From: an uncultured Lachnospiraceae bacterium
GTDB taxonomy: Bacteria; Bacillota; Clostridia; UBA1381
Assembly: GCA_964388835.1 (NCBI GenBank)
Contig: CAYMBZ010000003.1
Location: forward strand, 880-64,879
DNA: 64,000 nucleotides
Direction of reading: 5' to 3'
Below, piece by piece: positions 5,949-27,710 of the stretch. Made by a program: the position numbers and the translations under genes. Position 1 is the stretch's first letter. The number at the start of each line of letters is the position of its first letter. The notes below the pieces were generated by a model. That model was not told where the DNA came from and did no database searches. It saw nothing but the letters and a program-made list of their open reading frames with translations.

Positions 5949-5975
5949 ATATATATTCTTTACGAAAAATAAACA

Positions 5976-6016: not shown

Positions 6017-6033
6017 CTTAAATTACTAATATT

Positions 6034-6108: not shown

Positions 6109-6129
6109 ATATCCGTACAACAAGAGCTG

Positions 6130-6176: not shown

Positions 6177-6705
6177 TTAAACTTGTTACACAGAAATGTT
6201 ATAATAAAATGTACCCCATATGTCACTTCGTTATATGCTATAATATACAAGAGTATATAGGAGGTTTTCTAACCGGACAAATTATTAAAACAAGTGATTT
6301 TATCAATGAAAATCATGTGATATAACGATTTCAACCCGGTAGAAAAACAAGCAAAAGCGGAAATGCTAGATTACCGACTTTGGCTCTCGAACCCGTTTTA
6401 TTGTGTGAAGCAAAATGGCAAAATAGTCACAAAAGATGCCGAAAGTGATTTTTCGTTTTTCAAATCGTCTTACCCGCAAAATTCAAGAGTGAATTTCCAT
6501 GGTCGAATAAAGGAGCAGGAGTAAGTACAACGATAAAATCTAAATTACCGAAGTGTCGGTATGTGTTTATAATGATAGTATCAACTATCATTATAAATTT
6601 CAAACATTCCAAATAAATTCCGCTGTTCCTGTTTTCATCTGTGGCGATACATTTAATCAAAGTATTGCGCACCGCACGTTTTCATTATGTGAAGATAGGG
6701 GGTGT

Positions 6706-9300: not shown

Positions 9301-10704
9301 ATGAAAAAAAATTTAATGAAAACAATCGCTATGCTTCTGGGAGCTTCAATGGTTCTCGGAGGACTTGTAGGATGCGGAGAAAAGAAACAGCAAACGGACG
9401 GAAAGGTTACGATTTCACTTGCGGATTACTTTTCAGATCCGAAAATCAATCCTGAGGGATATGAAGCGCAAATGGAGGGTGTTAAAAGATTTAATGAAAT
9501 TTATCCGGATATCGTAATCGAGGACGGAAAATATTCTTTTGCCACAGATACATATATGGCAAAAGCTGAAGCGGGAACACTTCCGACCGTATATTACGTA
9601 CCGCTTACCGAGTGCGAGAAAATTAAGGATTTGGGATATGCGGCGGACCTTACAAAGTATTTTGAGGAAAACGGTTTTAAGGAAAACTTGAATGATTTGG
9701 CGCTTGACATAATTTCAAGAGACGGAAAAATGTATTTTGTTCCGGAGCAATTCTATTATGTGGGACTTTTCGTAAACATCGACCTTTATAAAAAGGCGGG
9801 CTTTGTGGCAGAGGACGGAACACTTTATCAGCCGACCGATTGGGAGGACCTTGCAAGAGTTGCAAAGGAAGTTAAGGCAAAAACCGGAGCTGACGGATAT
9901 GCAATGCCTACAAAAGGCAATCAAGGAGGCTGGAGATTTACACCGGTTGCATGGAGCTACGGAACCGTTTTTGAGGAAAAGAACAAGGACGGAAAATGGG
10001 AAGCTAAATTTGATACCGAAGAATGTGTAAACGCGGTTCAGTTTATAAGCGATCTTAAATGGAAGCACGATGCAATTCCGGCAAACACTTTGCTTGAAAA
10101 TGCGGACATATATCAGCAGTTTGCAGCCGGCAACATTGTAATGACGATGGGTGAATCAAGTATGATAGATAGAATGGTTTCGACATATGGTATGAGCAAA
10201 GATAACCTGGGCGTTTTGAGAATTCCGGCAGGTCCGGAGCGTGATGTATCGCTTCTCGGCGGTGCTGTACGCGTAATCGACAGAAACGCAACACCTGAGC
10301 AGATTGATGCGGCACTTAAATGGCTTGAATTCAACGGATATACATATAAAGTTGATGATGAAACCAAACAAAGTATTGAATCGGACTATCAAGTCAAAGA
10401 AAGTCAGAATCTTCCGATAGGTATCAGAGCTATGAGCCCGTGGAAGGACGGCAGTGAGTATGAGTTGTTCCATGACGAAATGATGGCAAAATATCAAAAT
10501 GTAAGCGATAAGAATGTTGAGAACTACAACAATACCGATAAGCTTGAGTTCCAGGTTGAGGAAGCGGTTGAAGCTCAATCGCTTTACAAAACATTTGACA
10601 ATGTTATTCAGGAATGCTTGACAAATAAGGATGCGGATATAAAGGCACTTGTTTCAAAGGCTGCTTCAGATTTCCAGAGTAATTATCTTGATTTTGCAGA
10701 ATAA
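9301..10704 (+). CDS. extracellular solute-binding lipoprotein of a carbohydrate ABC transporter (family 1 SBP)
   Basis: ATG at 9301 follows AAGGAGAG. The signal peptide carries the lipobox LVGC (MKKNLMKTIAMLLGASMVLGGLVGC). It has typical SBP length and is a paralog of 37941-39329. The track's earlier start at 9259 lacks an RBS. Confidence 0.85.
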   Translation: MKKNLMKTIAMLLGASMVLGGLVGCGEKKQQTDGKVTISLADYFSDPKINPEGYEAQMEGVKRFNEIYPDIVIEDGKYSFATDTYMAKAEAGTLPTVYYVPLTECEKIKDLGYAADLTKYFEENGFKENLNDLALDIISRDGKMYFVPEQFYYVGLFVNIDLYKKAGFVAEDGTLYQPTDWEDLARVAKEVKAKTGADGYAMPTKGNQGGWRFTPVAWSYGTVFEEKNKDGKWEAKFDTEECVNAVQFISDLKWKHDAIPANTLLENADIYQQFAAGNIVMTMGESSMIDRMVSTYGMSKDNLGVLRIPAGPERDVSLLGGAVRVIDRNATPEQIDAALKWLEFNGYTYKVDDETKQSIESDYQVKESQNLPIGIRAMSPWKDGSEYELFHDEMMAKYQNVSDKNVENYNNTDKLEFQVEEAVEAQSLYKTFDNVIQECLTNKDADIKALVSKAASDFQSNYLDFAE

Positions 10705-10718
10705 GGGGCATATATTTA

Positions 10719-11633
10719 ATGAAAACAACAATAAAAAAGAAGAAAAAAAGGGGAGTATCCTTCTTTTTAAAAGACCTGAGCGGATGGATGCTGATGCTTC
10801 CGTCGATAGTATTGGTAGTAATGTTTGTGGTACGTCCGCAAATTTTGGGAGTTATCTGGTCAACATTTAATATGAGAGGGTTTACCGTACAGGATTTCAT
10901 TGGACTTAGGAATTTTCAAATAATACTGAGCAACGCGGATTTCTTGAAAACCTTTACAAACACATGGTTGTACTTGATTTATTCCTTGATTGTAGGTCTT
11001 TTGCCGCCGTTTGTAATGGCTATCATTATGAACGAAATGGCATGTTTCAGAAAAACAATCAGAACGCTTGTATATCTTCCCGGAATAATGCCGGCGATAT
11101 CGGTATCGATTCTTTGGTCGTTTGTTTATTACCCGGATGCCACAGGACTCTTAAATATGGTATTGGGAATGTTCGGAATGGAGCCGTATGTATGGCTCCA
11201 GGACGGACGCTTCACAATTCTGTGGATTATCGTAAGTATGACATGGACGGGAATGGGCGGAACGGCGATATACTATTTTGCGGGACTTCAGGGCGTAAAT
11301 TCAGAGCTGTATGAAGCGGCAATGATGGATGGCGCGGGATTTATAAGACGACTCAGAACCGTTACAATTCCGCACATGTTGCCGATGTTTATGCTTTTTG
11401 CCGTAAGACAGTGCGTGGGCGTTTTCCAGGTAGTAAATCAACCGCTTCAAATGACGGGCGGCGGACCGAACAATGCTTCAATGTCATTGGGACTTTTGGC
11501 ATACAACTATGCTTTTGTGAACGGCAAGCCGCAGTTTGCCATGGCGCTTAACGTAATCACTTTCTTTGTTATTATAATATTTACTCTGATATATTATAAG
11601 GTTGATAAAAAGGTTACGCAGGATTTAATATAG
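10719..11633 (+). CDS. carbohydrate ABC transporter permease (MalF/LplB-like)
   Basis: Six hydrophobic segments and the EAA loop ELYEAAMMDGAGFIRRLRTVTIP. Confidence 0.9.
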   Translation: MKTTIKKKKKRGVSFFLKDLSGWMLMLPSIVLVVMFVVRPQILGVIWSTFNMRGFTVQDFIGLRNFQIILSNADFLKTFTNTWLYLIYSLIVGLLPPFVMAIIMNEMACFRKTIRTLVYLPGIMPAISVSILWSFVYYPDATGLLNMVLGMFGMEPYVWLQDGRFTILWIIVSMTWTGMGGTAIYYFAGLQGVNSELYEAAMMDGAGFIRRLRTVTIPHMLPMFMLFAVRQCVGVFQVVNQPLQMTGGGPNNASMSLGLLAYNYAFVNGKPQFAMALNVITFFVIIIFTLIYYKVDKKVTQDLI

Positions 11634-11655
11634 CAGAGAGGAGCGAGGACAAGGA

Positions 11656-12540
11656 ATGAAAAAAATTGATTTTGCGTCAAAAGTTCATTACGGCGCTATA
11701 CGGCCTATTGATATGAAAAGCACAAAATACAAGGTTACATACGGAATACTTTCGCTGATAATGTTGCTGTATCTTGTAATAGTATTTCTGCCTGTTGTAT
11801 GGATGATGCTTTTCGGATTTAAAGATACGACCGAAATTTATGCGAGAGTTCAGACGTTTTTGCCGAAAGAGATAAAGCTTTCGAAAATGGGCGAAGTTTG
11901 GAATCAGCTGGAGCTTTACAGATATTATTTAAACACCTTTATAATGGCAATCGGAAATGTTTTGATGGATGTTGTTGTTTGCGGGCTTGCGGGCTACAGT
12001 CTATCACGCTTAAAACCGAGAGGACACGCGATTTATATGACGGCGGTAACAACGCTTATGCTTGTTCCGGCAACATGTGCCATGGTGCCAAACTACATTT
12101 TCTTTAAAGATATGGGCTTGCTTGACACCTATATACCGATGTGGCTTTTGATGGGAACAAATATGTTTGATATTCTCCTGTTTAAGTCAACCTTTGACGG
12201 TATATCCAAATCACTGATTGAGGCGGCAAAGATTGACGGTGCATCCGACCTTAGGATTTTCGTTAAAATTGTAGTACCGCTTTCAGTGCCGGTAATATGC
12301 ACCTGTGCGATATTTACATTTAATAACAGTATAGGTGATTTCTTCTGGCCCTACCTTATTATACAGGATGCGGCAAAAGTGCCGCTGGGCGTAAGAATGT
12401 TTGAAATCAGCAAATCAACTTTATCTATCGATAAGCAGATGATTGCTCTGATTTTCTCAATAATACCGCAGATGGTAGTGTTCATTCTGTTCCAGAAGCA
12501 GATTATGGGCGGAATAAACCTCGGCGGAGTTAAAGGATGA
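11656..12540 (+). CDS. carbohydrate ABC transporter permease (MalG/LplC-like)
   Basis: Multi-pass membrane protein with the EAA loop IEAAKIDGASDLRIFVKIVVP. Confidence 0.9.
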   Translation: MKKIDFASKVHYGAIRPIDMKSTKYKVTYGILSLIMLLYLVIVFLPVVWMMLFGFKDTTEIYARVQTFLPKEIKLSKMGEVWNQLELYRYYLNTFIMAIGNVLMDVVVCGLAGYSLSRLKPRGHAIYMTAVTTLMLVPATCAMVPNYIFFKDMGLLDTYIPMWLLMGTNMFDILLFKSTFDGISKSLIEAAKIDGASDLRIFVKIVVPLSVPVICTCAIFTFNNSIGDFFWPYLIIQDAAKVPLGVRMFEISKSTLSIDKQMIALIFSIIPQMVVFILFQKQIMGGINLGGVKG

Positions 12541-12553
12541 TAGGAGGAAGAAT

Positions 12554-15500
12554 ATGAAACGTGCACTAACTTTTATACTTGCGCTTTCCATGCTCCTGCA
12601 GTTCGGAAGCACGGCGATGGCGGCAAGAAAAACCGTTAAGGACGGTGAGCTTGAATATACCGTTTTGTGGGAGGAAGATTTTGATTCGGGCAAAAAGGGT
12701 CAGGATCCGTTCTCTTCATCAAACGGGGTTACGATAGAAGAGCATGATGTTGAGCATGGTAACAGTGTAAAGGTTGTCATTGAAGACAATATGTGGCCGA
12801 GATTCAGAAAACATTTTGATGAACCTGTAAAGGACGGTATTCTGTATGTTGGCTACAATATATTCAGAACAAATAAGGGCAGAACCAGTGACGATTACCT
12901 TGAATATCACGATTCAAGATGGGGTAACGGAATGTTTATCGGAACTCTTTTTAATAATGATGAGGGAAAAATCACATGGTATGCGGACATGCATATAGAT
13001 GCAATCAAAATTCCCGCTCCGGGAAACACTGTGCCGCAGACAAACGTGTGGCACAGAGTGGAGAGCTGGATTGACCTGAGTAACAGAAAAGCTACATATT
13101 ATATTGACGGTGAGTTTTTGGGTGAGACCACAATAACCGATGAGTGTACTCAGATATCCTCATATGAGAGAGGATATGAGGGAGGCTACGGAACCGGAAT
13201 AGAGTATGTAGACGATTACAAAATTCTTCACTTTGATGAAATAGGAAGAGAAGTGGACTTGGACTTTGTAATGGCAACTCCGGAATATCTTGAAGCTCCT
13301 GCGCTTTTGGAGGCTGATGCTGATGTTTTGGGTTACAGTTTTTACGATAAAAAGAACACAATCAATGTTGATGTAACCAACTTGACCACAAAGCAGGCTG
13401 ACGGAACGGTTTATCTTGACATAACGGATGAACGCGGAAATAAAGTGTTCTCGCAAGGCAAGAAAACGTCAATCCCGGCAAAGGAGAAAAAGAGTGAAGC
13501 GTTCACATTTTCTTTTAGAGAATACGGAAGCTATAATGTAAAGATGAGATTTGAAATGGAGGGGCGAAAGACAAGCCGTGCGGAAACAACCTTTATGTTT
13601 ATAAAAAAGGCTCCGCCGAATGAAACGCTGGGATATTCCGCTCATACCTATTGGGGCTACGGAACAGCAGAGCTTGAAAGAAAACAGCAGGTTCTGAAAA
13701 ATGCCGGATTCACATTTGAGCGAAGCGAAATTTTCTGGGTTTACTACGTAATGGCAGGATATAAGATGGATGCCGTTCAGCAGAACATCTTGGATATCCA
13801 GGAGAAAAACGGAATGAAGCCGCTTGTTCTTCTTGCCGGTTGGGGCGGAATGAGCGACCTTACCGAGGGTGAGGTTCCGCTTTCGGATAAATCACGAGAA
13901 AACTTCAGAAAATATGTATCGGGTGTAGCCAATGACCTTAAGGGCAAAGTTAAATACTATGAAGTGTTTAACGAAACTCATTTTACCTCAAACCCCGAAG
14001 CATACGTTTTGGCACAAAAGACAGCATACGAAGCAATTAAGGAAGCAGACCCGGAGGCACAGGTTCTCTGCGGAGCGACGGCGCATGTACCGGAAGATTG
14101 GATAGAAATGCTTCTTGAAAACGGCGCGGGCGAATATTTTGACGCATTCTCTGTACACCCGTACACAATTGAAAACTTCCCGGAAACGGGCGGAAGATAC
14201 GGCAGTGCGGAATACATGGTATTGCAGTGTAGAAAACTGCTTGACAAATACGGACTTCAGGATAAGGGAATTGTTATCACCGAGCTTTCATATACTGCGG
14301 CACCGTCTTATGCAACCGAAACTCAGCAGGGTGCTTTCGGCTTAAGACAGTATATGATGGTTCAGCCCCATGTTGAAAGCTTCACATGGTACAACGACCA
14401 GAACAAAACCGCGGCAGGCTCTGACGTTGTTGAGGCAAACTTCGGACTTATGCGTTCGTGGGCAGGTGACGGAATCGCGTATCAGGCAAAGCCGGCACTC
14501 CTTGCATGGGCAGGATTTAACAGCGTATTGGCAGGAGCGGAGCCTTTGGGTAAGGTTGAAGCAAGGGATGAAAATGTTTGGATTTACAAATTTAAAACCG
14601 AAGCCGGTAAGGACGTTATAGCGGTTTGGAATTCGGACAATCTCCAAAAGAGCGTTGCATTAAAGCTCGGCGCGGAAAGCGTAAATATGTACGACATGTA
14701 CGGAAATGCAACTACGATTTACTCAAATAACGGTGTTATTAATCTGGATATTTCCGAAAACATTACATATTTGGAGGGCAATTTCTCCGAGATTACCCAG
14801 GTTGACAACGAATTTTCCGTAAGGGAGAATTCAGTCGGTTTAATACGCGGTGAAGAATTTACGCTTCGTATCGACAAGCTCCCGGCGGGCGATGTGGAAA
14901 TTAAGGTAGATTTGCCGGATAACATCTTATTAAAGGCTATAGAAAACAATGAAATTGTTTTGGAATCGGGCGCTGAGGGATGTGAGAGCGAGAAGATAAG
15001 AGTAAATGCAATTGTGGGCGGTAAAAAGGTATATGCTCATGAGGTGGCGGTTGAATATATCGACCCGGTAACCTATAATTGCGATGTTCTCCCGTATAAC
15101 ACTCGCAGGTATCAAGCGGTTTTGGAAATTACCAACGAAAGAAATACGAATGTTTCGGCAGAGTTGGTACTGACAGAGCCGGAGAGTGTTGCCGGAAAGA
15201 GTTATAAAATCAAAACCATCACTTCGGGCGATACAAGAACGCTGAGAATTAATATTACACCGGAAGAAGCTTCGGAAAATGTTTTAAGACTCAGAGGAGA
15301 GATAAATGTAAAAGGTATTGCCGGAGAAGAAGTGGTTAATGTAAAAGTTGACAAAAATGTCGGTTGTTTGAAGTATGACCCGAAGAAGAAACCCGAGATT
15401 GACGGAGTGATTTCATCGGGTGAATGGGATACTTTCTTGCCGATGAGAATTAACAACAGCAGTATGGCTCAGCAAAAGGCGTGGAGAGGCATGGATGACC

Positions 15501-16003
15501 TCAGCGCACTTGTTCACACCATGTGTGATGATGACAATTTATACCTTGCGGTTGAGGTGACGGATGATATCTATTGTGACGATGCGGAGCCCGTCAGCGT
15601 ATGGAGCGTAGACAGTATTCAGATGGCGATTGCACTAAAACGCCAATCGGGAGCGCCAAGTACCGAAATCGGTCTGGGTATCGCAAGAGGGGAAGCAACG
15701 ATTCAGAGTTATCTTTCACAATCTATTGACGGTGGTGTATCACAAGTTCCGTTCTCGGAAAATGTAAAATACGCCGTTAAGCGATATGAAGAAGAGAAAA
15801 AGACGATTTATGAGCTTCAACTGCCATGGACGGATATCTATGCGGAGAAACCGAATATCGCGACTATGGATAAGGTTTACTTCTCAATCCTTGTAAACGA
15901 TGAGGACGGAAACGGAAGAGGATGGCTGGAATACTGCGGAGGTATCGGAACGTCAAAGAACCCTGAGCTGTTTATGGAACTTCCTATATATAGGATTAAA
16001 TAA
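12554..16003 (+). CDS. secreted multidomain glycoside hydrolase: LamG-like module, clan GH-A-like TIM barrel, Ig-like spacers, C-terminal CBM9-like domain (1149 aa)
   Basis: Signal peptide MKRALTFILALSMLLQFGSTAMA. Clan GH-A hallmarks are present: YYEVFNETHF (acid/base NE), FSVHPY, and IVITELSYT (nucleophile E). The C-terminus (about 15356-16003) reads EIDGVISSGEWD...DDDNLYLAVEVTDD...VDSIQMAI...LVNDEDGNGRGWLEY, typical of CBM9-like sugar-binding domains. Confidence 0.7.
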   Translation: MKRALTFILALSMLLQFGSTAMAARKTVKDGELEYTVLWEEDFDSGKKGQDPFSSSNGVTIEEHDVEHGNSVKVVIEDNMWPRFRKHFDEPVKDGILYVGYNIFRTNKGRTSDDYLEYHDSRWGNGMFIGTLFNNDEGKITWYADMHIDAIKIPAPGNTVPQTNVWHRVESWIDLSNRKATYYIDGEFLGETTITDECTQISSYERGYEGGYGTGIEYVDDYKILHFDEIGREVDLDFVMATPEYLEAPALLEADADVLGYSFYDKKNTINVDVTNLTTKQADGTVYLDITDERGNKVFSQGKKTSIPAKEKKSEAFTFSFREYGSYNVKMRFEMEGRKTSRAETTFMFIKKAPPNETLGYSAHTYWGYGTAELERKQQVLKNAGFTFERSEIFWVYYVMAGYKMDAVQQNILDIQEKNGMKPLVLLAGWGGMSDLTEGEVPLSDKSRENFRKYVSGVANDLKGKVKYYEVFNETHFTSNPEAYVLAQKTAYEAIKEADPEAQVLCGATAHVPEDWIEMLLENGAGEYFDAFSVHPYTIENFPETGGRYGSAEYMVLQCRKLLDKYGLQDKGIVITELSYTAAPSYATETQQGAFGLRQYMMVQPHVESFTWYNDQNKTAAGSDVVEANFGLMRSWAGDGIAYQAKPALLAWAGFNSVLAGAEPLGKVEARDENVWIYKFKTEAGKDVIAVWNSDNLQKSVALKLGAESVNMYDMYGNATTIYSNNGVINLDISENITYLEGNFSEITQVDNEFSVRENSVGLIRGEEFTLRIDKLPAGDVEIKVDLPDNILLKAIENNEIVLESGAEGCESEKIRVNAIVGGKKVYAHEVAVEYIDPVTYNCDVLPYNTRRYQAVLEITNERNTNVSAELVLTEPESVAGKSYKIKTITSGDTRTLRINITPEEASENVLRLRGEINVKGIAGEEVVNVKVDKNVGCLKYDPKKKPEIDGVISSGEWDTFLPMRINNSSMAQQKAWRGMDDLSALVHTMCDDDNLYLAVEVTDDIYCDDAEPVSVWSVDSIQMAIALKRQSGAPSTEIGLGIARGEATIQSYLSQSIDGGVSQVPFSENVKYAVKRYEEEKKTIYELQLPWTDIYAEKPNIATMDKVYFSILVNDEDGNGRGWLEYCGGIGTSKNPELFMELPIYRIK

Positions 16004-16019
16004 AATTGAATGTACGCTT

Positions 16020-16046
16020 CGAGCACGGCAATGGCGCCGTGCCTCG
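16020..16046 (+). other. intercistronic GC-rich stem-loop without T tract
   Basis: CGAGCACGGC pairs with GCCGTGC(C)TCG, about 10 bp with one bulge. Confidence 0.35.
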
Positions 16047-16079
16047 GAGGTATAAAAAATAAAAAAGGAGTAATTAAAA

Positions 16080-18128
16080 ATGAAAGTTAAAAAATTATTG
16101 GCTTCTGTTTTGGCAGTATCGATGTTGTCAAGTATTGCGGCAACGCTCAATATCTCTGCCGCAGATACGGCGAATAACTACAAAACCACACCGGTATTAA
16201 ACGAGACTTTTGACAGCGGTGCGTTAAAGACGGAACATTCCGGTTGGGGTAACCAATGGATTGAGGAAACCTTTGCGGATGAAACCGGACGCGGTAAGGT
16301 TTGGACAATTCCTTTCGGAACTGGAATGGCGAATGCCGCGGTAAACGGTGCTTTCTCAAGCATAGGTCAGTATATGACGGGAAGCCTGAATTATGTAAAA
16401 TTTGATTTTAAGGCAGAAAATGCGTACAACTTTTCATTCCAGCTTATGGGAACGGAAGCGGATACAAGAGCACCGATACAGCTGTCGACTTCAAGACACG
16501 GTTGGATGTACGCAAACAATTTTGACAGTATAAGTCAAGCAGGTTTGGACGGAAATGAAACGGTACTGGACTCTAACTCTAAAGAGATGATAAACGCGGC
16601 TGAGTGGAGAAACGGAAGTGAGGCTATTAACTTTACGGCAGGCAACTGGTACAGCGTTATGTTTGTTATTGACAAGGTAAATACAAAGATAAAGATTTAT
16701 GTGGACGATAAGTTTATGCTGGAAAGAACGGTGCCTGCCGATACGATAAATGCTTTGGATATGCTACATGTATGGAATCATTATTCGGAATCGGATACGA
16801 GTGTCAGCAGATTTATGACATTCGACAACTTCCAAGTTGGTACCTGCACGGAGCAGATTGCGGCAGAGAAGCTAACACTTTCGGAAGACGGAAAACTTAC
16901 CGTAACTTATTCCGGCAAAGTTGTGGGAGCAACGTTCACTGCAAGCAACGTGGTTATCAAAAAGGATGGAGAGGGCGTTTCCTACAACGGTTCATATGAC
17001 AGTGAGACATATACATACACGGCTACCATTGCGAATTTTGACCCATATGCTGACTACACAGTTTCAATTAAAGGTATAACGGGATTCGGCGGCAAGCCGG
17101 TTCAGGAAGTTGAAAAAACTTTCAAGGGCGTTAAATATCTTTTCAGCCCGGTTTTGACGGATACATATGACGACGGTACTGCGACCTTTGATTGGCAACC
17201 GGATTGGTCACCGAGTACAACCTATGTGGATGAGACAGGACGTGGCAAGGTAGCGGCTGTTACGTTTAAAGAAGAGAACAAGGATAGCACGACAGAAACA
17301 AATATAGTATTAACAGAATTGTCACAGTACATGACATCGGATGTAAACTATATAAGTTTTGATATTAAGCCGGCACAGCTTATGAATATGTCATTCTCTC
17401 CGACAGATGTAACGAATGTAGTGTATCCTCTCACTTTGTTCTCCTCAGAAAATGGATGGTTCTGGGGTAGCGGCTCAAGAATTCCGACGCAATACGGAGA
17501 CGATTTACCGACAATATACGGAAACACCCGCGCAACTTTAGTTGGCTGGGGATTTAGCGCAAGCAGCTTTGCCGATACAGAGGTCGGAAAATGGTATAAC
17601 GTTAAGTTTATCATGGATAAGAAAAATGGAAAAATTGCGGTATATGTTGATGATGTTAAGCTTGATGAAGTAAGTGCAAGTGCGACGGAATTAAGCAGTA
17701 TAGACAGACTTTTGGTAAGGGATTGCTCCGCGGGTAAGACAGGACCTAATATGTACATCGACAACTTCCAAATAGGTGCGGCATTTCCGGCACCGTCTAA
17801 GGATACAAGCATAACGCTGGTTGATGCAAGCGGAAATGCAATTACAAACGGAACAACTGCCGCTGAGGTTTATCCGAAGGCTGTAATTAACAATACAGGC
17901 AAGGAAGCAGGTTCGGTACAGCTTTCTGTTGCAAGCTATGATGCCGACGGTGTGCTTTTGGATGTAAAAGTTGAGACCGTTACGGTTGCTGCAGGTGAGA
18001 TTAAGACCGTTACTTCATCCTATGGCGTTAAAACACAAGGCACAAAAACCGTTAAAGCATTCCTTTGGAGCGGTTGGTCAAATATTACACCGCTTGTTGG
18101 AGCAGATGTTAAAACGGTAAACAACTGA
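16080..18128 (+). CDS. secreted non-catalytic protein with two ConA/LamG-like modules, an Ig-like spacer and a C-terminal KAFLW beta-sandwich module (682 aa)
   Basis: Signal peptide. Two modules each start with DETGRGKV and contain the core strands NWYSVMFVIDKVNTKIKIYVDD and KWYNVKFIMDKKNGKIAVYVDD, ending FDNFQVG and IDNFQIG. No hydrolase motifs were recognised. Confidence 0.6.
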   Translation: MKVKKLLASVLAVSMLSSIAATLNISAADTANNYKTTPVLNETFDSGALKTEHSGWGNQWIEETFADETGRGKVWTIPFGTGMANAAVNGAFSSIGQYMTGSLNYVKFDFKAENAYNFSFQLMGTEADTRAPIQLSTSRHGWMYANNFDSISQAGLDGNETVLDSNSKEMINAAEWRNGSEAINFTAGNWYSVMFVIDKVNTKIKIYVDDKFMLERTVPADTINALDMLHVWNHYSESDTSVSRFMTFDNFQVGTCTEQIAAEKLTLSEDGKLTVTYSGKVVGATFTASNVVIKKDGEGVSYNGSYDSETYTYTATIANFDPYADYTVSIKGITGFGGKPVQEVEKTFKGVKYLFSPVLTDTYDDGTATFDWQPDWSPSTTYVDETGRGKVAAVTFKEENKDSTTETNIVLTELSQYMTSDVNYISFDIKPAQLMNMSFSPTDVTNVVYPLTLFSSENGWFWGSGSRIPTQYGDDLPTIYGNTRATLVGWGFSASSFADTEVGKWYNVKFIMDKKNGKIAVYVDDVKLDEVSASATELSSIDRLLVRDCSAGKTGPNMYIDNFQIGAAFPAPSKDTSITLVDASGNAITNGTTAAEVYPKAVINNTGKEAGSVQLSVASYDADGVLLDVKVETVTVAAGEIKTVTSSYGVKTQGTKTVKAFLWSGWSNITPLVGADVKTVNN

Positions 18129-18142
18129 ATATAAACAACTGG

Positions 18143-18180
18143 CATTATCCGTGCCGAAAGAGTGTTCGGTGCGGATAATG
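18143..18180 (+). terminator. strong intercistronic hairpin (partial terminator or RNA-stability element)
   Basis: 16-bp stem CATTATCCGTGCCGAA with TTCGGTGCGGATAATG (two G-U pairs), followed by TTCT only. Confidence 0.4.
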
Positions 18181-18226
18181 TTCTGAAATACTACAATGTG
18201 ACTCTTAAAATGAGGTGGACAAATTA

Positions 18227-20542
18227 ATGAAAAAATTCTTGTTTTTAATGCTTTCCCTCATATGCATAACGGCGGGTGCAGTTCATGCGGCAGATGAGGA
18301 AAGCAAAATTTTATACTACAATGACGGGTACAGTGATTTAAATTCTACGCAGACAACGCTTGACGGTGAATTGTGCCTAAAGCACAAAGTGGATTCAAGC
18401 AGTACAAATTATGTTGCAACTGCAGGTGTACTGAATCCCGAAGGCATAAAGGCTGATAAGACGATTTTCAGCTTTGATATAAACGCGGGTCAGACCAACC
18501 AGTATGTGTTTGCGGAACTTCATGGAAGTGACGGAACAAATTCCGCACAGATAGCAAGCTTTTTTGTTTCCATGGACGGAAAGATAGGATACAAAACGGT
18601 AAACGGATGGGAGGGAACAGCAGAATTCCCGAACGGAAATGATGCTTACTCTGGATATATTTTAAAAGATATTGAGCCGAATAAGTGGTATCATATAGAT
18701 ATGATTTTCAATCATGAGGACGGCTCTATCACCTATTATTTTGACGGCAGTGTTTGGGGAACAGGTCATACCTTTACCAAAAAGTATTATGTAAGCCTGT
18801 TAAATATGGCATCAAGGGGCGGAGAAGGTTATGTTACAAATCCGACCGGTAACGAGGTATTCTACCTTGATAACATAATGCTTGCCTCGGTTTACGGAGA
18901 TGAAATGATTGCAAATGTCGGAGCGGTTGACCTGAAAAAGAAAACCGTAAATATTACTTTCTCGGAAATTCCGAGCGAGACGGCATTATCGGATATTAAA
19001 ATTATCAATACCGTTACGGAAAACCAGGTTGCAATTACGGATATTAGCAGAAAGAACAACATTGTTACCTTAAGTTTTAGCGAAGATTTGGATACTTTGA
19101 CCGAGTATGCAATCGAAATTCCGGCGGGAATTACGGGAGTTCAGGGGAAAACAAAACACCAATTGTCGTATTTTGTAACCGAGAGCGGACAAGCTGACGA
19201 AAATATTGTATATACGACCGCACTTGAGGACGACTATGACGATGCAACGGCTATATATCAGTGGAATCCGTCTTACTCACCCGAGCCTGAGTTTGTTGAT
19301 GAAGCGGGACGCGGCAAAGTTTTGGGTATAAAATTTGCCGTAAAACAAGCAAATATCGAAACCAATATACTGCTGAGTGGGTTGGATAGCTATTTTCAAG
19401 ATAAAGATATAAGCACATTGAGCTTTGATTTAAAGGAAAGTCAGCTGAGAAATCATTCATTTTCACTGGTAACTTCCGGCTGGGCATATCCGATAACACT
19501 TTTCACTTCCGAGAAGGGGTGGTTCTGGGGTACGGACAGCGAGGCGCCGACACAAAACGGTGGAAATTTGCCGTTATTGTTCCCATCAACAAAGGCGGAG
19601 CTTGTAAATGATTGGGGATACCCGGCAAGCCAGTTTGCGGATATGCAGACGGATAAATGGTACAATGTTAAATTTGAGCTTGACCGCAAAAACGGAAAGG
19701 TAAGAGTTTACATTGATAACACAAAATTATATGAGGCAAACTGTTCCAAATCCACTCAAAACGCAATTAGTATGCTTTTGGTGAGAAACTGCTCGGCAGA
19801 AATATCAGCTGCTCAAAATGTTCTTTTTATAGACAACTTTACAATTAAAAACGGTGAGCCGGAACGCGAAAATAAGATTAAAAACACAAGATTTATCACA
19901 TCGGACGGACGTGTGACGGGCCCGTTCGGTAAAATCACAAGAGATTTGCAGAGAATTGACGTTGAATTTTACAATGCGCCGAAAGTTTCCTCAATAACAG
20001 CGGACAGTGTGAAACTGTTCTACGGAAGCGAGCAGGTTGCATATACTGTCGGCGGACTTTCGGGAAATGTGCTTTCCGTCATCCCGAGTAAACTGCCGAA
20101 TAGTGGCGACAAGGTTAAACTTGTTGTTTCGGGAGTACTTGCACAGGCGGGTGGAACGGTTTCCGACCACAGCGCGAGCGTAACCGCGGAGGGCGCAAAC
20201 GGCGGATTAAGCATTGCTCCGTTTATGACAGTTAAAACTGACGGAACTGAGGCTACCGCTGTTTCAGGCGATGTCTATGCAAAAACATCCGTATTTAATA
20301 CCGGAAGCAACACAGAAAATGTAATTGTTTCCATTATGGGCTATAACGGTGATAAAATGGTGGCGATAGACTTTGAAGAGATTGAGCTTAATAGCGGAGA
20401 CGTTGCCGTATTTGATGAAACGGGAAGCAACAATACTTTGAAAGTTTTAGATGACGGCACAATTACCGATGTTATGCTTGTTGTTTTAAAGGGCGGAGAT
20501 ACGAGATATTCGATACTTGCACCTGTTAGTATAGAAAGGTAG
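18227..20542 (+). CDS. secreted non-catalytic protein with two ConA/LamG-like modules, Ig-like domains and a C-terminal beta-sandwich module (about 771 aa)
   Basis: ATG at 18227 follows GAGGTGG, and the signal peptide is MKKFLFLMLSLICITAGAVHA. Core strands are KWYHIDMIFNHEDGSITYYFDG and KWYNVKFELDRKNGKVRVYIDN. Its second module is a close paralog of module 2 of the preceding gene. Confidence 0.6.
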   Translation: MKKFLFLMLSLICITAGAVHAADEESKILYYNDGYSDLNSTQTTLDGELCLKHKVDSSSTNYVATAGVLNPEGIKADKTIFSFDINAGQTNQYVFAELHGSDGTNSAQIASFFVSMDGKIGYKTVNGWEGTAEFPNGNDAYSGYILKDIEPNKWYHIDMIFNHEDGSITYYFDGSVWGTGHTFTKKYYVSLLNMASRGGEGYVTNPTGNEVFYLDNIMLASVYGDEMIANVGAVDLKKKTVNITFSEIPSETALSDIKIINTVTENQVAITDISRKNNIVTLSFSEDLDTLTEYAIEIPAGITGVQGKTKHQLSYFVTESGQADENIVYTTALEDDYDDATAIYQWNPSYSPEPEFVDEAGRGKVLGIKFAVKQANIETNILLSGLDSYFQDKDISTLSFDLKESQLRNHSFSLVTSGWAYPITLFTSEKGWFWGTDSEAPTQNGGNLPLLFPSTKAELVNDWGYPASQFADMQTDKWYNVKFELDRKNGKVRVYIDNTKLYEANCSKSTQNAISMLLVRNCSAEISAAQNVLFIDNFTIKNGEPERENKIKNTRFITSDGRVTGPFGKITRDLQRIDVEFYNAPKVSSITADSVKLFYGSEQVAYTVGGLSGNVLSVIPSKLPNSGDKVKLVVSGVLAQAGGTVSDHSASVTAEGANGGLSIAPFMTVKTDGTEATAVSGDVYAKTSVFNTGSNTENVIVSIMGYNGDKMVAIDFEEIELNSGDVAVFDETGSNNTLKVLDDGTITDVMLVVLKGGDTRYSILAPVSIER

Positions 20543-20547
20543 GAATT

Positions 20548-23477
20548 ATGATTAAAAAAATATGCTCGGTAGTTCTGTGTGGACTGTTTGCATTAAATGT
20601 TACCGTTTTTGCGACACCAACCGCCGTTGTAACAAAGGATGAGATTTACTTAACATCTCAATATTCCGGCGGAGAATCGGGAAAAATGTACAGTGTTGAC
20701 CTGTATGATTCCACATACAATGCTGAGAATCCGCTACCGTCATTGGTTTTCAGAAACCAGGAAATAAGCGGTCCCTCCGGGTGGTGGGGCATGACTATTC
20801 CAATGAAAAATAAAGAGGCGGGCGTTTACCGCTTGGCATCGGGAGAAGAGAGCGGTACGGTTTATACCGAAAACATTCTTTACGATAAATTTGACGGAAA
20901 GAAGACCTACAACGGTATAAGTGCAAATACCGACGGTTCTTTAAACTTTGACGCGGGTGCGTATTTGCAGGCGGATTTTGCGGACTTGGTTTCGGATAAT
21001 CTGGTGAAGGTAAGTTTTGATATTCAGCTGACAGAAAACAGTAACTTTTATATGAGACTTAACAATGTACAAGATGCTGTTTGGAACGACAAAACGCAAA
21101 TATTCGATACGCTTTACTTCAATTCAAACGGAAAGGCATACCTTTTTACAAATGAAAACAACTGGTCGGGGGCGGACGAGTACAAAAGCTGGTATGCGGG
21201 CAGAGAATACCATGTTGAGCTATGGGTTGATATGCTGAGAAAGAGCATAGCCGGATATGTGGATAATACCGCTATAGGTAAAATGCCGCTGGCGGACGGA
21301 CTTAACAAGTTGGGCGGACTAAAAATGACGTGCTCTTCGGGAAGCGCAAAAGTGAGCAATTTTGAAATGTGCGAATTTCCTGAGTACGGCACAGATGTCA
21401 GCCTCGGAAATCATGCTCCCGATTATGCCGAACAGCCGATTTATGCGGCGGTTAAGGTAGGAGATGATATCGGAAACATAATCTTCGGTGCGGAGAATGT
21501 GGATTTGGATATTTCTTTGCTTAATCGTGAGAACAAGGCGAGAAATTATACCGTTAAATATAATTTCTATGATGCCGACAGCGGTGTGCTTATCGGAAGT
21601 GACAGCGAAGATGTAAGTTTTTTGGGAAACGAAAAGCTGGTATTGAATAAAAAATTCGATTTTACAGATTTTAAGAAACAGTACGGATTTTTCAAACTGG
21701 TAATGAGCTTTTCGGAAAATTCCTATGAGATTTCGGATTTTAATTCCTCGGAATTCAGATTTTCCGTTGCAAGAAAATCCTCCGAGCTTAATAAGAAAAT
21801 GGGAATTCATACTCAGTTTGGACACGGATATTCCGGACAATACGAGAATATTACCCTTGCGAAAAACGCGGGATTTTATTCAATAAGAGACTATGTTGCG
21901 GATAGCCAGTACAGCGCGGCTAACGGATGGGTACTTCCCGAACGCTATACGATTTGGCACAATTATGCAAAAGCCGCAGACATGAATGAGATTCTGCATG
22001 TGTATTATTCCGCAAACGGATTGGTTCCGACATCGGATGCGGAAATCCAAAAATTTGCGGAGTATGCTGGCAAGCTTGCCGCAAATACCGATGCGGAATA
22101 CATTGAGTTGTTTAACGAGCTTAATCTTGCGGGTGATAGCATGACAACCGCAGATTACGCAAAGGTTCTTATGGCAACCGCCGAGAAAATTCATCCGGTA
22201 AAAAAGACAATGGCGATGGTAACCGCAAGAGCGGGAGCTCAGGCACAGGAATGGATTAAAGGTGTGCTTGATGCGATTGTTGAGGCGGGAGGACAGCCTG
22301 TTGATTATATCGATTCAGTATCGGTTCATCCGTATAAGCTCTATAACCTGTCACCGGAGACCGGCAAGATACCGGATAAGGGAGAAAACGACGGTACATT
22401 GCATGAGCAGGTTGCGGATGTACGTGCGCTTATGAATCGATACGGTCTGGAAGAGTGTCCGATTTTCGCTTCGGAAATAGGCTGGACATCAACGCCTGTT
22501 TGGTCAGGCTGGGCACAGGTGGACGACAGAGTTACCGAATACGAGCAGGCGGAGTATACTATTCGAGCCTCGGTTCTTCTGCATGAGGATTTGGAATGTA
22601 TGTATTGGCATACGATGAATGATAAGCTGGGTGCGGATGTTTATGAAGAGCATTTCGGAATCGTGGATAAAAGAGCGGCAGTGGAAATTCCTTTTGAAGC
22701 AAAACCGGCATTTATCGCATTGGCGCAGTTCAATTCCCTTTTGGCAAATGCAAAGAGAACTTCCGAAACGGAAAACAACGGCTGTTATGATGCGGTGTTT
22801 AATAAGAACGGAAAAACCGTTCATGTGCTTTGGACAGACAGTGGAAATAAACCATATGAGTTTAATGCCGTATCAAAGGTTTTGAAACTTTATGACATGT
22901 ACGGAAACGAAAGCATTGTAACCTCGGAGGACGGAAAATATAACATGCAGCTTTCAACATCGCCGATATATGCGGAGATACTTGACGGTTATGTTGAGTT
23001 TACCGTTGAAAATGCAAACATGTGCTTTGGACAGACAGTGGAAATAAACCATATGAGTTTAATGCCGTATCAAAGGTTTTGAAACTTTATGACATGTACG
23101 GAAACGAAAGCATTGTAACCTCGGAGGACGGAAAATATAACATGCAGCTTTCAACATCGCCGATATATGCGGAGATACTTGACGGTTATGTTGAGTTTAC
23201 CGTTGAAAATGCAAACGGAGATGCGGAGGTTAAGGTCGGTACGGACAGCGTTCGTGCAAGGCTTATTTCCAACAAAACATTTGATACCAAGCGCTACATA
23301 ATTGTGGCGGCATACAAGGATAAGCAATTGCTCGGTGTTGATATTAAACCGGTTGACGGAACGGCTTTGACAAATATGACAGAGCTGATATCGACACAGG
23401 GTGCGGATACGGTAAAGGCATTCTTGATGACGGAAAGCTTTGAGCCGGAACTTACAAGCACCGCGAACAGCAAATAG
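20548..23477 (+). pseudogene. secreted LamG plus clan GH-A-like hydrolase gene interrupted by a 197-bp tandem duplication (ORFs 20548-23082 and 23022-23477); 910 aa if one copy is removed
   Basis: Signal peptide MIKKICSVVLCGLFALNVTVFA. GH-A motifs are YIELFNELN, VSVHPY and PIFASEIGWT. Both ORFs encode LWTDSGNKPYEFNAVSKVLKLYDMYGNESIVTSEDGKYNMQLSTSPIYAEILDGYVEFTVENAN. Deleting one 197-bp copy restores a single 2733-nt frame. Confidence 0.85.
22822..23215 (+). repeat. perfect tandem direct duplication, 2 x 197 bp
   Basis: 22822-23018 and 23019-23215 are identical base for base on direct comparison. 197 is not a multiple of 3. There is 1 nt of junction microhomology (C). Confidence 0.97.
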
Positions 23478-23483
23478 AATGGA

Positions 23484-25127
23484 GTGACAATATTGAGAAA
23501 AATAATTTCTTTGGCAATCGCCGCAAGTACATTTTTAACTACTGCGGCAATGGCGGATGTTACGGATTTGGGAGGTCTTAAGGGAAATATAAATGAAGAG
23601 ACTACCTTTCCGAATACCGCAATGAATGTTGAGGTATATGCGCCGGGTAAGGGATACGCCGATTTAAAAACGGCATCTGCGGCGGAGTATAAGGATATTC
23701 TGATTTTCCGAAAGGTTGTAAATACCGATGCGGACGGAGTATTGGACGTTAATTTTGAGGTAGGCTCAAGCAATCCTGCGTCCGGAATATATTCGGTGTA
23801 CATTGCCGGCGCCGACTATAAAAAGGAGGACCGCGTTCTTCTTACAGATGAAACCACGGCGGCTCCTATTATAGCTCAGATAAACAGCGCTATGGCGGGA
23901 GAAGCTCAAAACGCAATAAATACAATCGCTGGTCTGATAGAGACCGCGCCTTTTGATTTGTACATCAGCGCGGATTCATATTTGACGCAGGACGTATATC
24001 CGATTGCGGCGGGGCTTGCGTATAACTACATGAAAACAAACAACATTACACTTACAAGTGCAAACTGCGGAACGATTATGAACAAGGCGGTATGCGTTGC
24101 GGCGCTGCAGAAAAATCTTGTAAGCAATGTGATTGCAGATGAAAAGGGCTTTAACCTTTCACAAAGCGAAATTGCGCCATACTACAAAAAGTATTACGTA
24201 ACTGAGGAGACCGGCAAAAAAATGGCGGCAAGACTCGGCGGTAAGGCTTATGCGACACTCGGCGATTTTGATAATGCATTGACCGAGGCATTTGTATTGT
24301 CCGTTTTGGAAAACCCGGACGGTTCGGATAACACAAAGGAACTGCTCAATGCGTTCTATGCGAAGATAGGAATTACTCAAAACGGAACAGCGGCGCAGTA
24401 TGCAGGAGTATCAAACAAGAGCTATACGGATTTTGCGGCGTTAAAAGCGGCTTATGTTGCACTTGCGGGACAAACACAGTACACACCGCAAGGCGGCGGT
24501 GGCGGCGGTGGAGTAGGCGGCTCCGGTTCTTCGCTTAATGCGGGATTTACTGTTCCGTCTCAGCCGACACAATATCCTATCACAATTTTTGATGATTTGG
24601 ATTCTGTTTCATGGGCAGAGGAGGCAATCGTTTACTTGGCGGAAAATCTTATCGTAAGCGGTAAGGGTGATATGAAGTTCTGCCCGAACGACGAGATTAC
24701 ACGTGAGGAATTTGTTAAGATTTTGGTAGGTGCGCTTAAAGTTGCACCGGAAGAAGAAAAGGAAATCACTTTCTCCGATGTAAGTGCAGATGCATGGTAT
24801 TACGATGCTGTTAAAAAGGCATATTCTGCCGGAATTGTAAGCGGAAAGAGCATTGAACTTTTCGGAACCGGCGAACGCATAACACGCCAGGAGATGGCGG
24901 CTATGGTAATGAACGGAGCGAAATATTCGGGACGAAGCTTAGAGGACGCAGTAAGCGATTTCAAATTTGATGATGACGGCGAGATGGCGGATTGGGCAAA
25001 GGAAAGTGTCTACATCTTAAGAGAAGCCGGAATAATCAGCGGAGTGGACGAATATCATTTTGCGCCGATTCAAACAGCAACAAGAGCTCAGGCGGCTAAA
25101 ATGATTTACGGCTTGCTTGAAGGTTAA
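23484..25127 (+). CDS. cell-wall-anchored protein: N-terminal beta-sandwich, alpha-helical region, poly-Gly linker, C-terminal triple SLH (547 aa)
   Basis: Signal peptide. The linker is GGGGGGGVGGSGSS. SLH repeats begin near 24585 (FDDLDSVSWAEEAIVYLAENLIVSGKGDMKFCPNDEITREEFVKIL; FSDVSADAWYYDAVKKAYSAGIVSG; a third follows). The start may instead be the TTG at 23493. Confidence 0.8.
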   Translation: MTILRKIISLAIAASTFLTTAAMADVTDLGGLKGNINEETTFPNTAMNVEVYAPGKGYADLKTASAAEYKDILIFRKVVNTDADGVLDVNFEVGSSNPASGIYSVYIAGADYKKEDRVLLTDETTAAPIIAQINSAMAGEAQNAINTIAGLIETAPFDLYISADSYLTQDVYPIAAGLAYNYMKTNNITLTSANCGTIMNKAVCVAALQKNLVSNVIADEKGFNLSQSEIAPYYKKYYVTEETGKKMAARLGGKAYATLGDFDNALTEAFVLSVLENPDGSDNTKELLNAFYAKIGITQNGTAAQYAGVSNKSYTDFAALKAAYVALAGQTQYTPQGGGGGGGVGGSGSSLNAGFTVPSQPTQYPITIFDDLDSVSWAEEAIVYLAENLIVSGKGDMKFCPNDEITREEFVKILVGALKVAPEEEKEITFSDVSADAWYYDAVKKAYSAGIVSGKSIELFGTGERITRQEMAAMVMNGAKYSGRSLEDAVSDFKFDDDGEMADWAKESVYILREAGIISGVDEYHFAPIQTATRAQAAKMIYGLLEG

Positions 25128-25139
25128 GAGAGGGATAAT

Positions 25140-27710
25140 ATGGTGAAACGTTCATTTTTATTCATGTTGCTTATTGCAATGTGTATGTTTTCAGTATCGG
25201 CGGGGGCTAAGGAAAACGTTTCTGCCGAAAGTGAAATTGAATTGCTTCAGGTATTGGATATTGTCGGCAGTGATTTTGCCGACAATGCCGATGAGCCTAT
25301 TACAAGAGAAGAATTTGCCGTATATGCGGCAAAGCTTAACCGGTACACGCCTGAGGCAAATGCTGTAAGATATTTTAATGATGTTTCCGCAAGCAGTGAG
25401 CTTGCGGGGTATGCGGGACAGCTCTTGGAGGGCGGAATAATTACTCAGCCCGCAGACGGTATGTTCCGCGCGGCAAGCGTTATTAAATATAACGAGGCAT
25501 GCTGTATGCTGGTTTCAAGCATGGGTTATGCAAAACATGCCGCTCTTATAGGAGGATATCCGTCAGGCTATGCAAATATCGCACATGACCTTGATATTAG
25601 AATGGGTGGCGGAAATGCGGAAATGACAAGAGCAGACGCGGCACGCATGATATACGATGCGCTTAAGGCGTATGTTTACAATGCGGCTTACGGCGGCAAG
25701 GAGGGCACAATGTCATTCAAACAGGGAAATAAAACCCTGATTGAAAAGAATTTCGGTATTGCATATGCCGAGGGAAAACTGATGGGAACACCCTACGGTA
25801 ACAGCGAAAGTTCCGAATTTGTGGGAAATGACCGCGTGGTTATATCGGGAAAGAACTATGTTATAAAAGGTGATGTCAGCGGATTGGATTTGTTGGGACA
25901 TAACGTTACATATTTCTATGATACCGACAGTGAGGAAATTCTTCATATAGCAATTGAAAAGCAAAAGAAGGATGACCTTGTTATCAATATAGCCGATATC
26001 CAAAGAATAAGCGGTACATCGGTGAGCTATAACAAAAACGGCAGTTTGAAAAATGTGAATCTGAAAACAGAGAATGTTATTTATAACGGTTTTCTGCAAG
26101 GAACACGAGTTGCCGAAAAACTTGCGGATTTAAACAAGGGTATTGTTATTTTGAGGGACACTGACAGGGATTCTCAATATGACATGATGATGGTTTACGA
26201 TTACACAAATCTGACGGTCGGAGGAACAAAACAGGATAAAACTCTTGTTTACAACAAAATTCAAGGCGGTGCAAACCTTGACCTTACCGATGTTGAGGTA
26301 ATTGAGGTAACGAAGTACGGCGAGAAAATCGATTTTGCGGAAATAAACGATGGAGATTCTCTTTCGGTAATGACTGCGGACAACGGGAAAGTTATAAAAA
26401 TTATCGTAAATACCGACGAGGTTATAGGCGCATTAAATAGCTTTGACGGAGAATATGCCGTAATTGACGGTGGTGAGTACCTTGTCGAAAAAAGCTATCG
26501 AAGCAGTTTCCTCAAAAAGGTAAAAACGGGAAGCAATGCCGCATTCGTACTTGACCCATTCGGAAATGTTGTGTATGTAAATGTAGATTCCGAAGAATGG
26601 CAGTTCGGATATATCTTAAAAAGATATTTTGAGGATGATGACAACTTGGGTTTAAAAATTTTGACCGAAGACGGGGAAAGAAAGATAATCAACCTTGCAG
26701 AAAGAGTCAGAATTGACGAGACAACTTACAAGTACACAGCTGATTTTGAAGAACAGCTGACCGGACTTAGCGAGAATATCATCAGATTTCAAAAAAACCG
26801 TGACGGCAGAATAAACAAAATCGACACATTAAAAATCGGAAGAAATGAGGATAAGGAAAAGTCAATTGTTTCGGTTTATGAAGATACAAAAGCATGGTCC
26901 GGAATGGGTAATATAGGTAAGTATGGCTCTAAGGCGGTGTTTACCGGCAGAACAATAGGCTTCATAGTTCCTAACAGCTACAACGAGGGGGACTATGCGA
27001 TAACCCTGGGTGCTCCCGATGATTTGTCAAATGACGGATTGGTGATAAAGTGCTATTATGCGGATACCGCGGATTCGGACGGATATGTGGATGCATACGT
27101 TAAAAAGTATGACAGGGAAACCGAGAAAAAGACAATCACTATGATGTACAGTGGCAAGAGCATGGGGCTTGACGATGACGGCGATCCGGTGTATATTGTA
27201 AAGGGTTACTCTGCGGGAAAGGAAGTTGAACAGGAGATTTCCACAGAGATTGGTGCCGAAAGTTTATCTGCACTTTCAAGTCTTAAAAAGGGAGATATGG
27301 TTGTACTTACCGTATATGCGCAGAGTCTTAAATTCTGCACTGTTGAGAAGATTTTTGATGCTGAAACCGGTACGCCATGCAATTTTAAGGCGATTACCGC
27401 AGAACATATTTGGTACAGCGGAACAACCGAGGAGGCATACTATGCATCAACAAACCAAATTGTGTACGGAGAGATATTCGACAGACACGGAAATGTATTT
27501 TCTATAAGAAATGACGAAAATTCCGAAGTCAATGAAAGATTTACAATTCCGTCATCCTTGACATGCGTATTCTATGACAAGGCGACAGATGAAATATACA
27601 CCGGCAGTTGTGATAATATTCAGGATTATGAAACAGCAAGAAGCAATTGTATGAAAGTGATAAAAACTTCATATTGGGGCAGTGTATCCGGTGTATATCT
27701 GTATAAATAA
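25140..27710 (+). CDS. N-terminally SLH-anchored large surface protein, about 650-aa C-terminal region of unknown function (856 aa)
   Basis: Signal peptide. SLH-like repeats occupy the first 190 aa or so (ITREEFAVYAAKL, FNDVSASSELAGYAGQLLEGGIITQPADGMFRAASVIKYNEACCMLV). Paralog of 27740-30307 and 42816-45515. Confidence 0.65.
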   Translation: MVKRSFLFMLLIAMCMFSVSAGAKENVSAESEIELLQVLDIVGSDFADNADEPITREEFAVYAAKLNRYTPEANAVRYFNDVSASSELAGYAGQLLEGGIITQPADGMFRAASVIKYNEACCMLVSSMGYAKHAALIGGYPSGYANIAHDLDIRMGGGNAEMTRADAARMIYDALKAYVYNAAYGGKEGTMSFKQGNKTLIEKNFGIAYAEGKLMGTPYGNSESSEFVGNDRVVISGKNYVIKGDVSGLDLLGHNVTYFYDTDSEEILHIAIEKQKKDDLVINIADIQRISGTSVSYNKNGSLKNVNLKTENVIYNGFLQGTRVAEKLADLNKGIVILRDTDRDSQYDMMMVYDYTNLTVGGTKQDKTLVYNKIQGGANLDLTDVEVIEVTKYGEKIDFAEINDGDSLSVMTADNGKVIKIIVNTDEVIGALNSFDGEYAVIDGGEYLVEKSYRSSFLKKVKTGSNAAFVLDPFGNVVYVNVDSEEWQFGYILKRYFEDDDNLGLKILTEDGERKIINLAERVRIDETTYKYTADFEEQLTGLSENIIRFQKNRDGRINKIDTLKIGRNEDKEKSIVSVYEDTKAWSGMGNIGKYGSKAVFTGRTIGFIVPNSYNEGDYAITLGAPDDLSNDGLVIKCYYADTADSDGYVDAYVKKYDRETEKKTITMMYSGKSMGLDDDGDPVYIVKGYSAGKEVEQEISTEIGAESLSALSSLKKGDMVVLTVYAQSLKFCTVEKIFDAETGTPCNFKAITAEHIWYSGTTEEAYYASTNQIVYGEIFDRHGNVFSIRNDENSEVNERFTIPSSLTCVFYDKATDEIYTGSCDNIQDYETARSNCMKVIKTSYWGSVSGVYLYK

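Follow-up and report, generated by a model that had tools for sequence, protein, structure and literature searches.

The duplicated unit and the gene that it splits

The window analyzed here, a stretch of 64,000 nucleotides from a metagenome-assembled genome (MAG) of an uncultured Lachnospiraceae bacterium (GCA_964388835.1, contig CAYMBZ010000003.1), contains a perfect tandem duplication of 197 bp that splits the gene for a predicted secreted glycosidase into two open reading frames (ORFs). Comparison with contigs from the Logan collection indicates that the two-copy form is present in the deposited scaffold but is probably not the main allele of the organism. The features of the locus, in window coordinates, are as follows.

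20548-23082, plus strand: 5′ ORF of 844 aa, with 824 native residues followed by 20 frameshifted ones
22114-22119, plus strand: predicted acid/base pair codons N523-E524 (ELFNELN motif), invariant in a 40-sequence alignment and aligned to VWNEPN of PslG
22474-22476, plus strand: predicted nucleophile codon E643 (ASEIGW motif), invariant in the same alignment and aligned to TEWGW of PslG
22822-23018, no strand assigned: copy 1 of the 197-bp unit, codons 759-824, in the beta-sandwich after the barrel
23019-23215, no strand assigned: copy 2 of the unit, equal to copy 1 and missing in Logan contigs L006 and L008
23014-23024, no strand assigned: novel joint GCAAA/CATGTG, the sole sequence specific to the two-copy form
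23022-23477, plus strand: 3′ ORF of 151 aa in the original frame, repeating residues 760-824 and adding the last 86 residues
23220-23477, plus strand: coding region of a C-terminal module of ∼80 aa (motif ...AAYKDKQL...VKAFLM...), missing from the 844-aa product
23493-25127, plus strand: next gene, for a 544-aa protein with three C-terminal SLH repeats, used as an anchor for finding independent contigs

Direct comparison of the two segments shows that 22822-23018 and 23019-23215 share 197 of 197 bases, confirming the base-for-base duplication of the original prediction, and a repeat finder recovers the same pair in a shifted register. An exact adjacent repeat of 197 nt cannot be due to chance. 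The run of identity at period 197 extends over 198 nt, such that the joint has 1-bp microhomology (C); in longer context, the joint of the two-copy form reads AAAATGCAAA/CATGTGCTTTGG, where the slash marks the junction. The unit is located inside a 68-kb scaffold, away from any contig end or rotation point.

As 197 equals 3 × 65 + 2, the frame of the ORF starting at 20548 shifts after native residue 824 and runs to a stop at 23082, and the original frame is resumed in 23022-23477. This anatomy had been described correctly. The native frame extends through residue 824 and not 823, as copy 2 supplies with its first base the last position of the same AAC codon. The second ORF was also rightly said to lack a ribosome-binding site and signal peptide of its own: no Shine-Dalgarno sequence is found upstream of the GTG start at 23022, and no signal peptide is found in the 151-aa product. 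Deletion of one copy in silico yields the 910-aa ORF that had been proposed (2733 nt including the stop codon).

The 910-aa protein is laid out as a signal-peptide-like start, ∼400 residues of beta-rich modules, a barrel at residues ∼415-735, a beta-sandwich at ∼736-824, most of which is encoded by the duplicated unit, and the C-terminal module of ∼86 residues. The 844-aa ORF contains the signal-peptide-like N-terminus, the beta-rich N-terminal modules, a GH39/PslG-like (beta/alpha)8 barrel, and the beta-sandwich; the truncated product therefore keeps the catalytic barrel, as had been stated. The gene is part of a tightly packed, same-strand row of surface-glycan genes, with the SLH protein gene 7-16 nt downstream.

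A search of 5.8 billion clustered proteins returned no close homologues besides P0002, with 884 aa and 51% identity, and P0003, with 940 aa and 39% identity; both align end to end with the restored 910-aa ORF. Each carries one copy of the duplicated segment, and the one-copy state is thus ancestral. A DNA search of 40 related genomes gave no match to the locus, and a search of genome and metagenome contigs for related loci found nothing beyond the distant locus of P0003 and a single short fragment.

Independent assemblies and a positive control

The one-copy and two-copy forms were compared on assembled Logan contigs, which were located with flanking proteins as anchors, using the likely gene-caller starts. 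Logan assemblies are built from 31-mers, with k-mers seen once discarded and SPAdes-like graph cleaning (PMC12424806). The protein collection contains an entry of Logan origin, P0004 (L006:10306-13035), that matches the 910-aa product of the restored gene at every residue, and eight flanking proteins are likewise found in Logan with identical sequences. The exact flanking proteins occur in only two runs of the collection, SRR17221345 and SRR17221342, and both runs have one copy of the 197-bp unit. The contigs that cover this and two further duplications of the genome (described below) are the following.

SRR17221345_67930 (L006), 15,859 bp: window 10243-26298, 0 mismatches (100% identity), one copy of the 197-bp unit
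SRR17221342_699053 (L008), 3,994 bp: window 21803-25993, 1 mismatch (99.97% identity), one copy of the 197-bp unit
SRR17221345_9685 (L009): C38, 512-bp unit in single copy
SRR17221342_599689 (L010): C32, 358-bp unit in single copy

Contigs of SRR17221345 match the MAG at 100% over 29.5 kb. Exact look-up of the 844-aa ORF in the protein collection returned no match, and neighboring proteins written with longest-ORF GTG starts were equally unmatched. Proteins predicted to be truncated by contig edges at the 197-bp unit gave no match either, in a collection that does not index the control partial proteins of L011 and L008. A literature search found no paper naming either run.

The MAG consists of 124 contigs totaling 1.69 Mb (42.7% G+C), with runs of N of 10 and 100. 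Six pairs of contig ends share an overlap of exactly 55 bp, and this feature, together with the N runs, identifies the contigs as SPAdes-type scaffolds with a final k of 55, the metaSPAdes default. An untrimmed k-mer overlap was considered as the origin of the repeat and ruled out, as 197 differs from 55. A scan of all contigs for exact periods revealed three perfect tandem duplications, of 197, 358, and 512 bp, that are the longest within-contig repeats of the genome; the lengths of the two sister duplications, listed here, likewise differ from k.

C32 5942-6662, outside the window: 358-bp tandem duplication, 5-bp microhomology (CACCT)
C38 8636-9662, outside the window: 512-bp tandem duplication, 3-bp microhomology

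Both sister duplications span intergenic DNA along with the 3′ ends of genes, and no gene is left without a complete copy. The joints of the 197-, 358-, and 512-bp duplications show 1, 5, and 3 bp of microhomology, respectively, for which the joint probability in random blunt joins is ∼1e-4. A polymerase template switch, whether in vivo or in vitro, is therefore likelier than ligation. No perfect tandem duplication of at least 60 bp was found in 0.59 Mb from four congeners, a difference from three per 1.69 Mb that is not significant.

The 358-bp repeat serves as a positive control for how a supported joint appears in Logan. The left contig of SRR17221345 (L011) stops at C32 5971, 30 nt inside the repeat start at 5942. 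A unitig must stop at the shared 30-mer, because the path from the flank into the repeat and the path from repeat to repeat merge there. The end of the right contig was predicted at C32 6633 before it was looked up; the contig retrieved, SRR17221345_76741 (L012, 10,669 bp), corresponds to C32 17301-6633 at 100% identity and ends exactly at this position. Measured against the repeat run 5942-6662, each end therefore falls 30 nt inward, precisely k-1 for 31-mers, and L011 and L012 match the MAG at 100% over 3.0 and 10.7 kb, respectively. The 139-aa gene that spans the 358-bp unit is called only in SRR17221342 and is missing from the gene calls of SRR17221345. The 358-bp joint is real DNA in SRR17221345, and Logan contigs break at duplication joints that have read support. 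SRR17221345 contains the strain of the MAG and very probably supplied its reads.

At the 197-bp and 512-bp units, contigs of SRR17221345 run straight through as single copies, and in the absence of a break we conclude that these two joints are rare or absent in this run. Minia applies a relative-depth cut-off of about four-fold, by which 'rare' would mean well below the depth of the flanks. The 197-bp joint is thus absent from, or was cleaned out of, an independent graph that keeps the supported 358-bp joint, as expected for a joint of weak support.

Origin of the second copy

The one-copy contigs of the two runs favor a single, intact 910-aa gene as the likely main allele. Among the three readings offered with the original prediction, these contigs support that of an artifact or mixed population, and neither a fixed pseudogene nor a reversible switch gained support. 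A mechanism by which a scarce joint could come to dominate the scaffold follows from the properties of de Bruijn graphs. A tandem duplication longer than k would appear as a loop whose back-edge exists only if some reads carry the joint. Should the back-edge survive cleaning, the assembler would walk the loop once and write two copies however rare the joint, and the extra copy would amount to a low-frequency joint promoted to consensus. Such would be the handling of a weak back-edge by metaSPAdes. Some reads presumably carried the joint, because a two-copy path in a k=55 graph needs 55-mers that span it; joint-bearing reads would then exist at low depth, and the second copy would have been written by the loop handling of the assembler. 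A search of the literature found no paper on metaSPAdes misassemblies at tandem duplications.

If the second copy did arise in this manner, the joint-bearing reads could come from cells or from the library. The likelier source is a real minority subpopulation with a spontaneous, microhomology-mediated duplication, which may have been formed by replication slippage or template switching and would be unstable, as 197 bp of perfect homology allows its precise loss. Chimeric reads of technical origin have a smaller, though appreciable, chance of accounting for the joint. The real duplication is favored because an assembler with read error correction needs several joint reads, because the joints show microhomology, and because independent support exists for a sister duplication from the same data.

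Several points weigh against a rare joint as the explanation. Its frequency was judged from contigs, for which zero and low read counts look the same. The assignment of SRR17221345 as the probable source of the MAG is drawn from identity and graph topology rather than from documentation, and one contig of this run differs from the MAG by 1 SNP. Both the loop handling and the Minia cut-off enter the argument as background on these programs. Finally, if the MAG was derived from unindexed or co-assembled data, the duplication could be frequent there.

Among the alternatives, the one that survives best is a purely technical joint, the artifact share of the preferred explanation taken by itself, in which chimeric library molecules or post-assembly processing created the repeat and no cell carries two copies; a proposed route is in vitro template switching by a polymerase, amplified through PCR duplicates. 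The one-copy contigs in both runs fit this explanation, as do the library-fragment-like sizes of 197, 358, and 512 bp in a single 1.69-Mb MAG and the lack of such duplications in the sequence from the four congeners, although that last difference is not significant. We nevertheless consider it rather unlikely. The length of 197 bp does not correspond to the assembler k of 55, the joint must occur in several reads for a de Bruijn assembler to write it, the microhomology speaks against blunt ligation, and inverted or hairpin chimeras of the kind produced by multiple displacement amplification, which were also considered, are absent from the assembly. Moreover, the 358-bp sister joint survives in the independent k=31 graph, unlike a rare chimera, and at least one of the three duplications is therefore real DNA.

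A duplication that is fixed or at high frequency, and hence a very recent pseudogene in a MAG population that differs from those of the two Logan runs, is improbable. The zero divergence of the copies would fit a recent event, the assembler did write two copies, and the strain of SRR17221342 shows by a ∼353-bp indel and SNPs that populations differ structurally. Against this, the sole two runs with the exact flanking proteins have one copy, and one of them, SRR17221345, is very likely the source, given its 100% match over 29.5 kb and the same topology at the 358-bp joint. A fixed duplication would break the k=31 contig as at C32, yet the contig passes through the 197-bp unit. The pseudogene is thus unsupported for these read sets and would need source data other than the two runs, to which nothing points.

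Least tenable is a selected, reversible switch (on/off or anchored/released) between the full enzyme and a form without its C-terminal module, operated by gain and loss of the 197-bp copy in the manner of cap3A: the duplication is perfect and within an ORF, its precise loss restores the gene, both forms are tied to the same strain, the lost part is a discrete module found at the C-terminus of ∼20 ORFs, several with a signal-peptide-like start, and a precedent is given in the passage on cap3A of Streptococcus pneumoniae in PMC11163986, but the boundaries share only 1 bp, so that formation would be a rare illegitimate event with nothing to promote it, the other two duplications lie at unrelated loci, inactivate nothing, and fit random events, the second ORF has no translation signals, and no evidence of recurrence was found, with P0002, P0003, and both Logan contigs in the one-copy state (40 related genomes and the contig collections having been searched). 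Nothing supports the switch beyond the trivial loss by homologous recombination that is open to any 197-bp tandem duplication. Scarcely more credible is a variant in which the population of SRR17221345 carries several segregating, revertible duplications and the 197-bp one is a cap3A-like toggle of a surface glycosidase, where gain and loss of the module would take the enzyme back and forth between a cell-bound form and a released or inactive one.

A rare joint written into the scaffold as a second copy, which we prefer, has practical consequences for users of the genome. The public record annotates two coding sequences (844 and 151 aa), and the main allele would encode one 910-aa enzyme; counts of pseudogenes or carbohydrate-active enzymes from this MAG would accordingly mislead. 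A cheap check that needs no reads is to ask whether, at a claimed duplication, Logan contigs of the source run continue through with one copy or end exactly k-1 bases within the boundaries, the latter being the mark of a supported joint. If the joints are real minority alleles, this population would illustrate, on a small scale and in nature, how transient tandem duplications segregate in an uncultured, gut-type bacterium of the Clostridia.

Some additional observations concern the sister loci and their populations. The 358-bp unit includes the 3′ part of the 139-aa gene and the region around the start of the gene that follows, and the 512-bp unit extends over the 3′ end of a gene for a HAD hydrolase, the intergenic DNA, and the larger part of a gene for an 85-aa protein resembling selenium/sulfur (Se/S) carriers. 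The strain of SRR17221342 lacks ∼353 bp (C32 ∼4059-4424 versus L010 3633-3645) that are present in the MAG and in SRR17221345. Imperfect 13-bp direct repeats (GATAACAGCCCAA / GATACCAGCCCAA) border the segment, and the difference between these closely related populations is a real indel of the microhomology type. A gene for a Glug-domain-like protein encodes 330 aa in the SRR17221342 strain (L010 650-1642) and 229 aa in the MAG (C32 6773-7462) and SRR17221345 (L012 9840-10529); a 1-bp gap between the sequences may lie behind this difference in length. Two neighboring ORFs of 333 and 153 aa at L012 879-2407 each match the GH116 N-terminal domain PF12215 and may be one gene split by a frameshift.

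The enzyme, its C-terminal module, and known systems

The gene product is predicted from its sequence to be a secreted, PslG/GH39-like glycosidase of clan GH-A with intact catalytic residues. Pfam and NCBIfam searches of the 910-aa protein gave nothing significant. An exhaustive profile search found 2,390 relatives; in the 50%-identity protein library, the PslG/GH39-like family of the enzyme numbers ∼2,400. When a profile of 40 relatives was compared with solved structures, the matches were PDB 5jvk (E 9.7e-70), PslG (4.9e-31), and GH39 beta-xylosidases (∼1e-18); the best of these, PDB 5jvk, was deposited merely as an 'uncharacterized protein'. Residues R447, N523-E524, H594, Y596, and E643 are invariant in the 40 relatives and make up the clan GH-A catalytic set, with Arg on beta2, the Asn-Glu acid/base pair on beta4, His and Tyr on beta6, and the Glu nucleophile on beta7. 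An AlphaFold2 model built from a 3-sequence alignment reached a mean confidence (pLDDT) of 47.5, too poor for a comparison of folds.

The enzyme resembles PslG of Pseudomonas aeruginosa, the GH39 beta-xylosidases, and PDB 5jvk in its profile matches, in the aligned NE and E motifs (VWNEPN and TEWGW in PslG), and in the beta-sandwich that follows the barrel. It differs from these proteins in its ∼400 additional N-terminal, beta-rich residues and in the undescribed C-terminal module of ∼80 aa. The Pfam GH39 model PF01229 matches 8 of the 40 relatives and fails to reach this protein.

A hidden Markov model of the C-terminal module (consensus ...vAaY..g.L..v.......vKaFlW....m.Pl) picked up ∼20 additional ORFs across the 1.69-Mb genome; with few exceptions, the end of the module lies no more than a few residues from the C-terminus. 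No Pfam match was found for the module, and an NCBIfam search likewise gave nothing significant. Besides the copy at window 23220-23477, carriers include window 18026-18070 (C3 18906-18950) and C3 46391-48643, and further module ORFs are located on C2, C5, C10, C11, C18, C22, C32, C45, and other contigs. The module-bearing ORFs include glycosidases, a 1300-aa amylase, and a giant ORF of 3408 aa (measured stop to stop), and several of the N-termini that were checked resemble signal peptides. The module may represent a domain for sorting or anchoring in these Clostridia that has yet to be described. The earlier suggestion of a C-terminal targeting module has thus gained support from the position of the module at the extreme C-terminus of ∼20 ORFs, with targeting itself still putative.

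The duplication invites comparison with three known phenomena. The type 3 capsule gene cap3A of S. pneumoniae undergoes unprogrammed phase variation by tandem duplication, according to the account of Waite et al. 2001 in PMC11163986. As described there, a perfect duplication within the ORF of a gene related to surface polysaccharide means off, and its precise loss means on; these features are shared by the locus studied here. The two differ in that here only one joint is known and the intact allele is probably the predominant one, without evidence for recurrent formation, a phenotype, or selection.

Duplications that arise from k-mer overlaps of de Bruijn assemblers provide a second parallel, being similarly perfect, frame-shifting, confined to one deposited assembly, and absent from an independent assembly. 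Untrimmed SPAdes overlaps measure 55 or 127 bp, in contrast to the 197 bp found here with k=55 and inside a 68-kb scaffold. Unlike an overlap artifact, this joint must also be present in reads, and a sister duplication has independent support in a read graph.

Bacterial genomes acquire spontaneous, microhomology-mediated duplications by replication slippage or template switching and lose them by RecA-dependent recombination. Three in the genome of one 1.69-Mb population are more than we would have expected of such events. In other respects the duplications of this genome resemble them closely, with their head-to-tail arrangement, zero divergence, 1-5 bp of microhomology, random positions with respect to genes, and apparent low frequency.

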